From a virus: a DNA stretch of 64,000 nucleotides. This document shows, one piece after another, positions 20,350 to 59,398 of the stretch; positions within the stretch are counted from its first letter, which is position 1; every line of letters begins with the position of its first letter. The DNA is taken from IMG/VR virus record IMGVR_UViG_3300031656_000001; one strand, given 5' to 3'. The translations under genes and the position numbers were made by a program. The notes below the pieces were generated by a model. The model saw only the letters and a list, made by a program, of their open reading frames with translations. It ran no database searches and had not been told where the DNA came from.

Positions 20350-21789
20350 TTAAATAGTTATATCAGAATATCTTTCATTCATAATTGTCTTGTCCATTAT
20401 TGATAATGGTGTAAAATCATCTCCACCTAAAAGTGACTTTAAGATTGCTGGAGAGAAACCACTTACTAATGCAGTTCCCATTTTATCAAAGGCAACTGGT
20501 ACATCACCGTGTCTAGAATTAAGGTTCCAGTAAATAATCTTAGGAATCTTATAACCTACATCACTGTATAATTTTTCAATCATTTGCTGTGCGGTTGGGT
20601 TCCATTCGTTAGTATTTCCTCTGCTTCCCCATGATCTAGTACTTGTTGCTTCATCAAATTGCATATCTGATAATATCATTATTTTATCTGGCATTTGATC
20701 TGCTTTAACTTCATGTTTCACTGCTTGATCTAATACTTTCATGAATGCGGCTTCTATATTGGTATTCATTCCCCAATCAGATCTATTCATTTGTTGAAAT
20801 CTATCGTATAAATCTCCCTTTAAATATTGTAATTCAGGTGAACCGCTAAATGTTAAGAAAGAATCTTGGAATGGTCCTTCATTTCTCTCAGAAATATAAA
20901 GTCCTAATGAGATTGCAACATCCATACAAGTTACATTTGCATTGTTTCCTGCTGCGCATGACATTGATCCTGAAGTATCTACCATCGGTAAAATCATTTC
21001 AGTTGCTCCTTCTAAGAAATTAGGTAGAGCTTTCCATTGTGCGCTTGCTACATCTTTATCACCTCTATGTAAAGACTTAGTGATGTCATAAGGATAAACT
21101 GCACCTGCATTAATTGTTGCTTCGCCTTTCTTAAGAGCATTCACATAGTTTTCATATCCAATTGGTGCATTCTTCCAAAAAGCTTTTTGATATCTAGCAC
21201 TTGCCACAGATGGCAACTTAGAGAATTCAATAGCTTCCCATTCTTTAGCACACATTAATGTTTCAACAACTTGTGTTAATCCAACAATAGTTTTACGGTA
21301 TTGCTTTGGTGTCATGCCCATAAAGTTTCTAAGCTTTGCAGCTGTTGCACCTTTACGTGGCATCCATTTAGCACATAAACCATTCTTATCTTCTATTGCT
21401 TCTGCTATTAATATAAATGCTTTAGTTTCTAATTTAGTTCCTTCAAATACTAACAAGTCATCCCATCTTCCAAATTCTGAAATAAGGTTTAAGTTTCCTT
21501 CAATTGCTGCAGTATGATTTTCTGCTAAATAAAGTACAATATCTTTAAAGATCTGTCTTTCACCAGCACCACCTCTAACATCTCTTGCCCAAAACAATAT
21601 CTTCATTGCTCTTAATGGATCAGTATTAAACGCCAAAGAAAATTGACTAATAAGTCTAGCTTTATCTTGGCCTCTCATTGCTCCGATATTAAAGAATAAA
21701 TCAACAACTGTATTTAAAGAAGTTGAGTTTGTTGCCATACCATTTTCTGTTACGACATCATCTTGACGAATTGCATCTACTAATTTCAT
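20350..21789 (-). CDS. DUF2828-family Ro60/TROVE-like helical + vWA protein
   Basis: TENG, RDVRGGAGER, EFGRWDDL and AKWMPR in the helical domain; vWA MIDAS DTSGSM, SDMQFD, YWNL, VSGFS. Confidence 0.85.
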   Translation of the reverse strand: MKLVDAIRQDDVVTENGMATNSTSLNTVVDLFFNIGAMRGQDKARLISQFSLAFNTDPLRAMKILFWARDVRGGAGERQIFKDIVLYLAENHTAAIEGNLNLISEFGRWDDLLVFEGTKLETKAFILIAEAIEDKNGLCAKWMPRKGATAAKLRNFMGMTPKQYRKTIVGLTQVVETLMCAKEWEAIEFSKLPSVASARYQKAFWKNAPIGYENYVNALKKGEATINAGAVYPYDITKSLHRGDKDVASAQWKALPNFLEGATEMILPMVDTSGSMSCAAGNNANVTCMDVAISLGLYISERNEGPFQDSFLTFSGSPELQYLKGDLYDRFQQMNRSDWGMNTNIEAAFMKVLDQAVKHEVKADQMPDKIMILSDMQFDEATSTRSWGSRGNTNEWNPTAQQMIEKLYSDVGYKIPKIIYWNLNSRHGDVPVAFDKMGTALVSGFSPAILKSLLGGDDFTPLSIMDKTIMNERYSDITI

Positions 21790-33377: not shown

Positions 33378-34373
33378 TTATAATCTTTTATATTCTGGTT
33401 TAATAAGTCTCCAAATGGTATCTGAATAATCTTTGTTATCCAACATTTTAAATAATACAGCTGAATACTTATTCCATTGTACCGATTCTGCAAATTCCTT
33501 TCTATTAAGATTTTTGTTAATATTGAATCTTGCAATTGTTAGTTCTTCTATCAAACGGTATTCGGATTTTAGTTCGTTAATATACACATCAACCCCCTTA
33601 AAGAACTCATCCGGCACATCTTTCAACATTTCGTAAATATCATCACCCTTACTTAAACATTCCCATACCGATTTTGTAGAGATTTCAGTCATTATTTTAT
33701 GTAACCTAAGATAATCCTCAAATTTGATTTTACATCTATCGCCATTTCCAAACTTAACCACAAATCCTTCTTTATTTTCCCAGTTCAATGTTTTTAAATG
33801 TTCATAGTTTTTAATAGTATGATATTTTTTAACGACATCATATCCATTTTCTCTGAAAGTATCTAATGAATACTCTTCACCAGAAATAGTTCCGATTCTA
33901 CCTAATAGAACCAATCTATCTTCACCAATATAATCTACTACGATTCTATTTGCAGGATAAATGATTTCAAACATATAAGTTGAACCTTTATCAAAATGAG
34001 ATTCTTGAAACTTCTCTTTAAACATTTCAGCACCTTTAATTGCTTGATCAGAAGCGAATGATCCTCTAGATGCAAATACCCATTGTCCATCATAATAGAA
34101 TGCAATACCTAAAGATCCATCCATCTTTTCATAGACATCAAATTCTTTAGTTGGTGTATGTTGTGCTTCTTCAATATTAAAAAACTTTTGAAATGGTCTA
34201 GCAACTATGTTACCTTCATTATCTGTGACCAATCCTCTGCAATGTAAAGTGATACTATCCCATTTTTTCTCAAACTGAGTGGCTTGAGAATAATTCCAAA
34301 TAGTTAATGGAAGTGTTGGATGGGTTTGTTTGATTAACCAACCTTGTTCGTAATATTCTTCTAATAGTACCAT
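33378..34373 (-). CDS. RNA ligase, T4 Rnl1/RnlA family
   Basis: CRGLV, RPFQKFFN, EKMDGSLG, SRGSF, FEII, EGFVV, KIKFEDY; start moved to MVLLEE. Confidence 0.9.
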   Translation of the reverse strand: MVLLEEYYEQGWLIKQTHPTLPLTIWNYSQATQFEKKWDSITLHCRGLVTDNEGNIVARPFQKFFNIEEAQHTPTKEFDVYEKMDGSLGIAFYYDGQWVFASRGSFASDQAIKGAEMFKEKFQESHFDKGSTYMFEIIYPANRIVVDYIGEDRLVLLGRIGTISGEEYSLDTFRENGYDVVKKYHTIKNYEHLKTLNWENKEGFVVKFGNGDRCKIKFEDYLRLHKIMTEISTKSVWECLSKGDDIYEMLKDVPDEFFKGVDVYINELKSEYRLIEELTIARFNINKNLNRKEFAESVQWNKYSAVLFKMLDNKDYSDTIWRLIKPEYKRL

Positions 34374-34461
34374 ATGTATTTTTAAGTATAATGCTAATAT
34401 AAACATTTATATTGACATAAAAAAACTTTTGAGTACTTATTTTCAAAAAACTTTTATAATA

Positions 34462-34580
34462 AACTAATATTGCCTTCCAACCGGCACCCAAACTCTATGG
34501 TTGGTACTTCTATGATAATGTTTGGTTCTGCTTATCATATTACTCTTTTTCACTATAGCTCTCGCAAGGCAATACTAATT
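34462..34580 (-). ncRNA. candidate kissing-loop structured RNA
   Basis: 15-bp terminal stem; two hairpins with complementary loops CCAAAC/GTTTGG. Confidence 0.65.
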
Positions 34581-35356
34581 TAAATATTCTTTATCTTTGG
34601 TAGTAATCAAATACCTCTTCTAATTGACTTTCGTCTTTAATAACTGAGGTCCACCAGCCACCTCCTGGTTTCTCAACGGTTTCTTCTTGATCTGCCCATT
34701 CTGTTTCAATAACATCTACAAAAAACGTCTTAGGTTTGAAAGGTAATTTAATAAACTGTCTACTTGCAAGTACGCTTCCGTCTTTTAATTTAACAGAATT
34801 ACTTGTGAAAGTGCTGCCATTGTCTCCTCTAAATATAATTGCATCTAAATAATAAGGAGCTCCATTTTTACCGTCTTTAAATATAGATGATAATCTTTTA
34901 TTTTGGTACATTGATGTTTTAGTACCGACATGGTCTGATACTTCACGCCATTCTGAATCAATACATGTGATATCACAAAGAGGTTCTTGTAAACATAATT
35001 TCTTAACAGCATCTGAAATTGCGCGAGCTGTGTATGGCGCAGAACCACCGCTCTGTCCACTTTCACCAAACTTATTTACTAATGCAAGTATCTCTTTTTC
35101 AAAAGGTATAATTAGTGCATCTTCTACTGTCTTTTTCAGAATTTTAAATTCTAATACTGCTTTTTTTACTGTGTTGCTAGTTGCCATGATTTAATTGTTT
35201 AAAGTTAATTGGTTTTCGTTAAATATATGTAATAATCCATATTCGTCCATTTCTGCAACTAATCTAACGTTACCTTCTTTCGTTTTAAATACAGATACTA
35301 TTGTACATGGAAATTTATATCCTTTTTCTTTTGTGGCTTTGTCGCCTATTTTAAAT

Positions 35357-57316: not shown

Positions 57317-57826
57317 ATGGGTAAATCATATTCGCATATAAACATCACACGTACGTCAGGTCCAAATCCTAGAAATCGTTACGGTATTATACTTGCACCT
57401 CTAGCAAAGCTCTACAGGAAGTTCCTAGTAGACCACAGGCATATAAAACGATGGTCAGACGATGATAGATTTGTAACATGTGTCCTTAGAATGCAAAAAC
57501 CTGCAGTTCGTAGTGTTATTTTAACTAAAAAGTACTGGGATCATAGTAATGGTATATTGGTTGATCTAGTTACATTACATGATAATTGTAATACTGTTGA
57601 GTGGATTTGTGCAATAAGTCTTAAACCAATCAAAGCTAAGTTTATGAATTTTGATTTGGAGAACTTCTTACATCCTGAGTATTATGATATCTTAAAGGCT
57701 CCGATGATTGATAGCCGTATCTTAAAATCTTCAATTGAGTTTCGCAAGAAATGTAAAAAACTCTTGCTCGATGAGAGACAAGAGTTTCTTAGACTTGCTA
57801 AAAAGAACGCTAAACGCTCTCTTTAA
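57317..57826 (+). CDS. hypothetical basic protein; the only credible plus-strand gene
   Basis: fills the gap between two minus-strand genes; GATAAATA just upstream. Confidence 0.7.
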   Translation: MGKSYSHINITRTSGPNPRNRYGIILAPLAKLYRKFLVDHRHIKRWSDDDRFVTCVLRMQKPAVRSVILTKKYWDHSNGILVDLVTLHDNCNTVEWICAISLKPIKAKFMNFDLENFLHPEYYDILKAPMIDSRILKSSIEFRKKCKKLLLDERQEFLRLAKKNAKRSL

Positions 57827-57829
57827 ATA

Positions 57830-59398
57830 TTACATTAATTTTGCGAATCGTTGAGCGATTGTTAAACCTTCATCTAATTTAATAGTTTTAGGTAATTCTA
57901 CTGCAACTGATTCTTCTATTTCATATGTTCCGTCTTTAACGAAATCAGCATGACCTGTCATACCGGCTAGTTTCATAATAGAACCTTTATCACCGGTCAT
58001 TGTCATTTCATCATAACCGTCTCCGAATGGATCAATATCTATAGTAACTTCAACTCCAATTTCTTTACCTTTATCTTTAATATAAGAATAATCTGGTTTT
58101 CCATCTTCGTCTTCTTCATCTGAATATGATTGTAATCCTGATAATGTCGCTTCATTAAGATCATCACCAGTTGGTGTATCTAATGATTCGTTTTCATTTG
58201 GTGTTTTAGGCACGATAGGCTTTCCATCTTTATCTACGGGTTTTGTTGCAACTTTAAGATTCTTAGATCCGCTTAGTGCTTTTAAATCTTCTTGTGCTTT
58301 TCCTAAATCAGCTACTAGTTTTTTACTTTTTTCTAAGTCATCACTACCATCAACATCATCTTGTTTTAATTTTGCTTTTAATAATTCAACATTAGCTGTT
58401 AATTTTTTAGCTTCATCATCACCGTCCTTTGCTTCATCATATTTAGTTTGCGCTGCTTCAACAGCAACTTTTGCAGCTTCTTTCTTCTCATCAGCCTTTA
58501 CCTTATCAGCTGCGTCTTTTTCCTCTTTTTTCTTTTTATCATCAGCTTTTTTAGCAGTGGCTTCGTCATCATTTGCAGCTGGTACCTTTTTAGCATCATC
58601 TTTATCAGACATCTGAGATTTTGATTTTGCATCTGCAGCAGCTTCTGCTTCTGCCGGTGTTTGTTCAGCAGCTGGAGCATCACCCTGTGCTGATGTATAA
58701 TCCTTTAATGATTGAGTATCATCAGCAATTCTATCTTCTAGTGTAGAAATTTCTAATTTAAGTTGTTTAGCTTCTTCACCTGATGTTGCTTTCATAACTG
58801 TTTTAGCAGCTATTAATTTAGCTTTAGTTTTACCTAAGCTAGCGACTTTAGCTAAACCTTCATCACCGCCAGTTAATTCTTTAATTCTGTCGCTTATGGC
58901 AGAAGACTGATCTGAAAGTGCTTGATTTTTAGCTTTATTTGCTTGATTAAGAACTTCTAATTTCTTTTTCCAATCAGCTGCATCTGTTTTTTCTTTTGTA
59001 GCTTCCTTTTTCTTTGCAAAATCAAGATCATTAATTGCAGATTGAACTAATGCTTTCTGATATTTTTTAAGGTTAGCTTTAATTTTTGTGAATTTAATTG
59101 GAGATTTTATAAAATCTAATAAACCTTCATTAACCGAAGTAAGATTAGTTAATTCAAAAAGTTCTTCAAAAAGATCATTAATTTCTGATTCTAATTCAGT
59201 AGATTCACCAACTGTTCCAATTCTATCAGATAATTCTGTCAGTGTATTTAGAATTGTATCAACGTCTCTTATTACTTCAGTTCTAACTGTGTCGCCTGGA
59301 GTTACAGTGTCAATAGATACTTGATCAACCGACTTGTTCGTTGGCATGTTCTCGTTTACGAATTGTTCGTAAAGCTTTAATTTAGATTTTAATTTCAT
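57830..59398 (-). CDS. putative head/internal virion protein
   Basis: LKLYEQFVNE N-terminus, Lys/Ala/Asp coiled coil, next to the capsid gene, late motif. Confidence 0.55.
   Translation of the reverse strand: MKLKSKLKLYEQFVNENMPTNKSVDQVSIDTVTPGDTVRTEVIRDVDTILNTLTELSDRIGTVGESTELESEINDLFEELFELTNLTSVNEGLLDFIKSPIKFTKIKANLKKYQKALVQSAINDLDFAKKKEATKEKTDAADWKKKLEVLNQANKAKNQALSDQSSAISDRIKELTGGDEGLAKVASLGKTKAKLIAAKTVMKATSGEEAKQLKLEISTLEDRIADDTQSLKDYTSAQGDAPAAEQTPAEAEAAADAKSKSQMSDKDDAKKVPAANDDEATAKKADDKKKKEEKDAADKVKADEKKEAAKVAVEAAQTKYDEAKDGDDEAKKLTANVELLKAKLKQDDVDGSDDLEKSKKLVADLGKAQEDLKALSGSKNLKVATKPVDKDGKPIVPKTPNENESLDTPTGDDLNEATLSGLQSYSDEEDEDGKPDYSYIKDKGKEIGVEVTIDIDPFGDGYDEMTMTGDKGSIMKLAGMTGHADFVKDGTYEIEESVAVELPKTIKLDEGLTIAQRFAKLM

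Follow-up and report, generated by a model that had tools for sequence, protein, structure and literature searches.

An orphan stem-closed RNA with a predicted kissing loop downstream of a Tad3-like gene in a large marine T4-like phage

Introduction

What kind of RNA occupies the short gap between a Tad3-like gene and an RNA ligase gene in a large T4-like phage of marine metagenomes, and whether it belongs to either neighbour, is the question raised by the 64,000-nt stretch of viral DNA analysed here (the window). A sequence-only reading had outlined a 119-nt core at 34462-34580 on the minus strand, in which a long closing stem encloses a tetraloop and two hairpins with complementary loops; it placed this core upstream of the Rnl1 ligase and regarded it as a compact design typical of ribozymes or aptamers. 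Large phages of the Bacteroidota type hold many uncatalogued stable RNAs, almost none of which has a known job. The RNA treated here, short, sealed by a stem of its own and with a specific tertiary contact predicted, is cheap to test. Were it to represent a new ribozyme class, or a decoy RNA directed at bacterial immunity, the result would be notable; as it stands, and as judged from sequence, the RNA appears to be one well-formed orphan, which limits its interest.

Results

Genomic setting of the RNA

The capsid protein encoded in the window shares 51% identity with that of an uncultured huge phage and about 37% with those of Lak phages, and from these capsid relatives together with the promoter style we infer a Bacteroidota host. 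The genes neighbouring the RNA are all on the minus strand. Upstream lies a unit comprising gmk, a phosphoesterase gene, a gene for a short GIY-YIG protein and a Tad3-like ORF (34591..35187, minus strand; PF25185, the type I Thoeris inhibitor family, E 4.5e-21). The downstream neighbour was assigned by profile as an Rnl1-type RNA ligase gene (33378..34373, minus strand; PF09511, phrog_562), and a gene for an AAA_33 (PNK-like) kinase is found near the RNA. Rfam detects 14 tRNAs in the window, and two RNA ligases and a DUF2828 protein are among its gene products. The Tad3-like protein has at least 563 relatives, whose gene neighbourhoods are very different among close phages.

The closing stem of the RNA starts 8 nt past the stop codon of the tad3-like gene and is separated from the rnl1 start by an 86-nt spacer. 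Within this spacer is one copy of a promoter-like repeat (T-run, ATGTC ... TATATTAG; 34381..34455, minus strand), copies of which precede about 10 genes of the window and probably serve as promoters. Since the repeat lies between the RNA and rnl1, the RNA lies upstream of the likely rnl1 promoter rather than within the rnl1 leader. Several of the other promoter repeats in the window have simple hairpins in front of them. Neither an intrinsic terminator with a U-tract nor a conserved promoter delimiting the RNA was found at the locus. A late promoter directly upstream of the RNA was considered and rejected, as the candidate GATAAAGA departs from the consensus, GATAWATA, and is not retained in the related contig L326. 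The GATAWATA motif itself is likely a late promoter, with 20 of its 21 sites in the window located on the minus (coding) strand just upstream of genes.

Anatomy and folding of the RNA

The whole predicted RNA has 123 nt (34460..34582, minus strand) and is slightly longer than the 119-nt core. The 15-bp closing stem proposed previously was confirmed at 34580-34462 and can be extended to 17 bp at 34582-34460, including two G-U pairs. This stem, P1, is formed by a 5' arm (34566..34582) and a 3' arm (34460..34476), with pair probabilities of 0.78-1.0 in a 370-nt context. The 5' arm is followed by P2 (34558..34565), the GC-GAGA-GC hairpin, which consists of a 2-bp GC stem and a GNRA tetraloop that reads GAAA in another strain (change at 34561). 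J2/3 (34540..34557) is an A-rich 18-nt linker containing a CUAUAG palindrome and AGUA; the palindrome would allow dimers, yet is expected by chance. P3 (34511..34539; pair probability 0.88-0.99) has an 8-bp stem, TATGATAA/TTATCATA (34539-34532/34518-34511), and a 13-nt loop L3 (34531-34519), and is joined by the linker J3/4, GAAGUA (34505..34510), to P4 (34477..34504), whose 6-bp stem CCAACC/GGTTGG (34504-34499/34482-34477) closes a 16-nt loop L4 (34498-34483). Both junction strands of the sequence-only reading, GAGTA and GAAGTA, are on the minus strand together with its hairpins. AGUA...GAAG words flank both hairpins; compared with the AGUA/GAA of loop E, they are off by one nucleotide and form two overlapping motifs.

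The complementarity of the two loops was also recovered. In L3, GCA (34531-34529) and CCAAAC (34525-34520) are predicted to pair with UGC (34486-34484) and GUUUGG (34493-34488) in L4, giving 3 and 6 Watson-Crick pairs, respectively, and a duplex energy of -10.1 kcal/mol. Both loops are identical in every copy of the RNA found, all of which come from one phage population, and loop complementarity taken alone has a p value of about 0.004-0.03. The kissing loop between L3 and L4 of the 34582-34460 RNA is therefore best described as a plausible predicted contact. In a folding model without pseudoknots P4 reaches a pair probability of 0.36, and a rival pairing, GUACC/GGUGC, about 0.5, indicating that the proposed fold needs the loop-loop helix for its stability. 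P1 and P3 are robust even with the flanks included.

Several measures set the fold apart from random sequence. The minimum free energy (MFE) gave a z score of -3.66, with none of 200 shuffles as good, and the MFE of the 123-mer, -31.6, compares with -18.9 ± 3.0 in dinucleotide shuffles (z about -4), 3 of 3000 of which fold as well. The architecture was reproduced in 0 of 3000 dinucleotide shuffles of the 123-mer, and of ~2000 candidates with two hairpins from 2.5 Mb of related phage DNA, a single GC-rich, repeat-like stretch outscored the RNA (39.1). The GC content of the core is 42% vs 15% in the adjacent spacer. The two G-U pairs had been taken to fix the minus strand, an argument that carries little weight, since the plus strand has a fold of almost equal quality (z -3.30); gene direction and the GNRA-preserving strain variant are better support for the minus strand. 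Searching the window for antisense targets longer than 11 nt returned none.

Searches for homologs

At the gathering threshold, Rfam detected only tRNAs in the window, and at E<=10 the best match had an E value of 0.33, with all matches far below gathering. The sequence-only reading could not match the RNA to a family, and none of the covariance models of Rfam 15 matched it above gathering. A blastn search against 50,697 phage records gave no match or chance 19-24-mers. In DNA pattern scans, all matches in viral contigs were chance on inspection, those in GTDB were none or chance, and the metagenomes yielded one identical copy only. No further copy was found elsewhere in the window, where the RNA is single-copy.

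We also built a covariance model, R1, from the single sequence, which limits its sensitivity. Among 149 IMG/VR records reached via relatives of Rnl1, Tad3, the capsid protein and a sigma factor, R1 detected only L326; no match was obtained in four huge or jumbo phage records or in 153 bacterial genomes (among them G151 and 151 genomes of the family to which an Aquimarina genome belongs), and individually retrieved loci gave no homolog either. The weak R1 matches were coding sequence. A sequence-free descriptor search revealed no like architecture in 2.5 Mb of clade DNA. Homologs of the RNA are accordingly described as not found rather than as absent, most of the searched records being fragments and the model coming from one sequence. 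Taken as such, 34582-34460 is a real piece of sequence anatomy, uncatalogued, and an orphan backed by one phage population.

Comparison with known RNAs

In kind, the RNA is closest to the orphan phage RNAs and to GOLLD and ROOL, and is a member of none of these. T4 RNAC and RNAD are phage-encoded structured RNAs of unknown function (PMC9697503), and GOLLD and ROOL are stabilised by kissing loops and A-minor contacts (PMC12286853). The RNA has no Rfam match to GOLLD or ROOL and is several times shorter than they are; it also lies outside the tRNA cluster and lacks a T-loop.

The SRP Alu domain and the purine riboswitch both join two adjacent hairpins loop to loop and close them with a terminal helix, a topology that the RNA is predicted to share. 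The SRP Alu domain was rejected since there is no UGUNR U-turn between the kissing hairpins, where the linker is GAAGUA, and the purine riboswitch since its conserved J2/3 and ligand pocket are absent; neither family matched in Rfam. The consensus of the SAM-I clan of riboswitches comprises a GCAACC/GGUGC P3, an AUC/GAU P1 and a P2 pseudoknot. CAACC, GGUGC, UUAUCA and GAUAA are all found in the RNA, but only with their order permuted; it has neither GCAACC nor P2, and Rfam gave no match. Core motifs of the T-box are likewise absent from the RNA, and the family scaffolds of the lysine and glutamine-I riboswitches, which contain loop E, are unmatched in it.

A pseudoknot between stems I and II occurs in about 40% of hammerheads, and like a type III hammerhead the RNA has an open closing stem and two hairpins that differ by 2 bp in their stems and have loops pairing by prediction (PMC3088659). 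The hammerhead core is absent: the hairpins are separated by GAAGUA instead of CUGANGA, no GAAA follows the second hairpin (the sole GAAA lies in J2/3), and 26 nt occupy the cleavage junction, vs 1 nt in the hammerhead. The hairpin ribozyme was rejected as well, with neither NGUC of loop A nor GAAACA/GUAUAUUAC of loop B found and no Rfam match. Retron ncRNAs have long a1/a2 arms around short hairpins, and G residues face each other at the inner end of their stem (PMC7736814); P1 has similarly long arms with opposing G at 34565 and 34477. Other retron features are missing: the 3' hairpin has 6 bp and is no long msd stem, and the neighbours are the Tad3-like and Rnl1 genes, with no adjacent RT gene.

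The DUF2828 protein of the window is reportedly Ro60-like, and like the bacterial Y RNAs (YrlA) the RNA is small and stem-closed in a genome with a DUF2828 protein and RNA ligases. Its P1 is unbulged, UUCRA and a tRNA-like module are absent, and no YrlA match was obtained in Rfam, so that a Y RNA was rejected.

Strain variation and the slot after tad3

Identical copies of the RNA are present in many assemblies of the same phage. In L323-L325 it is unchanged despite many changes in the Tad3-like protein and an Rnl1 only 76% identical, and in L326 (Tad3 81% identical) it carries a single change, GAGA to GAAA, found also in a contig of another run. This is the sole variant of the RNA among the strains; it is structure-neutral, keeping the GNRA consensus, and is also compatible with a weak alternative hairpin, CUU-GCGA-(G/A)AG. 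The RNA has 1 segregating site in 123, against 20 in 123 upstream and 11 in 236 downstream (RNA vs downstream, Fisher p 0.045). This low variation hints at selection on the RNA. A shared recombination block may explain part of it, because the promoter and the rnl1 5' end are also little changed; rnl1 is mosaic (window 33378-34373 compared with L323), its first 150 nt being nearly identical and the next 300 nt 26% different.

The position after tad3 is variably filled in the relatives. It is empty in L312 and L313, where tad3 and rnl1 are 18 nt apart, and in L314-L321 the same slot holds a tmRNA gene directly after the tad3-like gene (L314:3628-3962; tag GNTELAMAA). L149 and L395 have a small hairpin and a promoter repeat after tad3 (L149:3590-3650, L395:3598-3660); this 45-60-nt element could pair in two alternative ways through its repeated GTTCA/TGAAC words. 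In some sister phages tad3 is followed directly by genes, with no structure, and most related phages are without the RNA. On the other side, rnl1 relatives at 75-93% identity occur without the RNA; 89-93% identical rnl1 genes sit after a kinase gene with no RNA between, and in L327 a tRNA-like element (2400-2475) lies directly upstream of rnl1. These variable tad3 and rnl1 contexts indicate that the RNA is tied to neither neighbour. The link to Rnl1 implied by the sequence-only reading was weakened on three counts, namely the promoter-like repeat between the RNA and rnl1, the rnl1 relatives lacking the RNA, and the direct adjacency of tad3 and rnl1 in a relative. From its distribution across these genomes the RNA looks like an exchangeable module in the slot after tad3.

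Discussion

Our tentative explanation is a stable, stem-closed noncoding RNA of ~120 nt that would be released by trimming from the tail of the upstream transcript and would act in trans as a protein-binding or decoy RNA. We favour it because the ends are sealed, the interior is predicted to be compact, no expression platform is present and the slot holds a stable RNA in sister phages. With no evident promoter of its own, the RNA would be transcribed as the tail of the unit running from gmk through the GIY-YIG gene to tad3, and host ribonucleases would trim this transcript back to the 17-bp stem joining both ends. P3 and P4 would lie side by side and be held in place by the helix between their loops, the A-rich linker and the GNRA loop may dock on helices, and the product would be a nuclease-resistant particle roughly the size of a tRNA. 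Such an RNA would most likely bind a phage or host protein, or be a decoy, in an RNA-level conflict between phage and host, in the manner of other stable RNAs of this phage. The tRNAs, the two RNA ligases and the DUF2828 protein fit such a conflict and identify no partner.

The main rival, possible though on the unlikely side, is a cis-acting 3' end-cap or insulator, which would remain attached to the mRNA of the tad3 operon, block 3'-5' exonucleases and separate this unit from the promoter repeat of rnl1. The position of the RNA, 8 nt past a stop codon and just before a promoter-like repeat, agrees with such a role, as do the simple hairpins in front of several other promoter repeats and the small hairpin at the same place in L149 and L395. 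For this purpose, however, the 17-bp stem alone would be enough, leaving the GNRA loop, the inner hairpins and the complementary loops as surplus; moreover, some relatives have no structure after tad3, and a U-tract terminator is lacking.

It is unlikely that the RNA is a self-cleaving ribozyme, or a ligand-binding aptamer, of a class not yet described that processes the polycistronic transcript. The topology resembling a type III hammerhead (PMC3088659), the purine-rich junctions with their repeated AGUA...GAAG words, and the nearby Rnl1 and AAA_33 kinase, which could heal the cleaved ends, would suit a ribozyme. They are countered by the lack of a core motif of any known class or an Rfam match to one at E<=10, and by the occurrence of rnl1 mostly without the RNA. 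Known small ribozyme classes are widespread, whereas this RNA is an orphan. Of the description as a compact design typical of ribozymes or aptamers, the compact, structured and non-random element stands; the ribozyme or aptamer received no positive support, the cores of known classes being absent. We would also give little chance to a new class of small catalytic or decoy RNA, of which this would be the first example, in which a kissing-loop RNA either cleaves itself and has its ends healed by Rnl1 and PNK, or sequesters an anti-phage protein of the host while the Tad3-like inhibitor encoded just upstream acts beside it.

The patchy distribution, including the empty site in L312 and L313, and the terminal inverted arms could be read as traces of a stranded mobile element, be it the kissing-loop leader of a lost endonuclease or tnpB gene, a MITE-like insert whose inverted ends are 17 bp long, or a retron-like ncRNA lacking its RT, to which the G residues that face each other at the inner end of P1 would correspond (PMC7736814). 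This origin is improbable, as the RNA is single-copy in the window, has no long msd stem and is accompanied by no reverse transcriptase among the window ORFs; furthermore, it is followed by a promoter and not by a ribosome-binding region, and it shows no decay across strains.

A riboswitch-like leader governing read-through into rnl1 is quite improbable. The distance of 86 nt to the rnl1 start, the two nearly equal folds of P4 and the fact that the RNA travels with the rnl1 5' end in the strains would be in keeping with it, but a promoter-like repeat intervenes, neither a terminator nor an expression platform is present, rnl1 relatives lack the RNA, and the RNA folds on itself and not over the start codon. 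Finally, it is highly improbable that the fold arose by chance or has no function, or that the sequence is a 24-codon ORF (ATG at 34538): the short frame is open, no homologs were found and loop complementarity alone has the p value given above, but an ORF of this length is common by chance, and the fold differs from its shuffles and its GC-poor spacer as given above.

Other structured elements in the window

Several further elements were observed in the course of the analysis. Stem-closed AGG...CAGCAA...CCTG elements lie among the tRNAs (window 27491-27547 and 27831-27975, minus strand), and the RNA described here differs from these in having no CAGCAA motif. The tRNA island includes long stretches without credible ORFs (26400-27320 and 28690-28860, minus strand), which have several hairpins, one of them of 9 bp (near 27110-27080), and may hold further ncRNAs. 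A tRNA-like element at window 28405-28475 (minus strand), of which the element upstream of rnl1 in L327 is a close relative, has a T arm and an irregular 5' half and scores below the Rfam threshold. The DUF2828/DUF7788 protein is encoded at window 20350-21789. Window 57754-57860, which separates the clamp-loader gene from the upstream late gene, contains two strong adjacent hairpins surrounded by a 7-bp stem.
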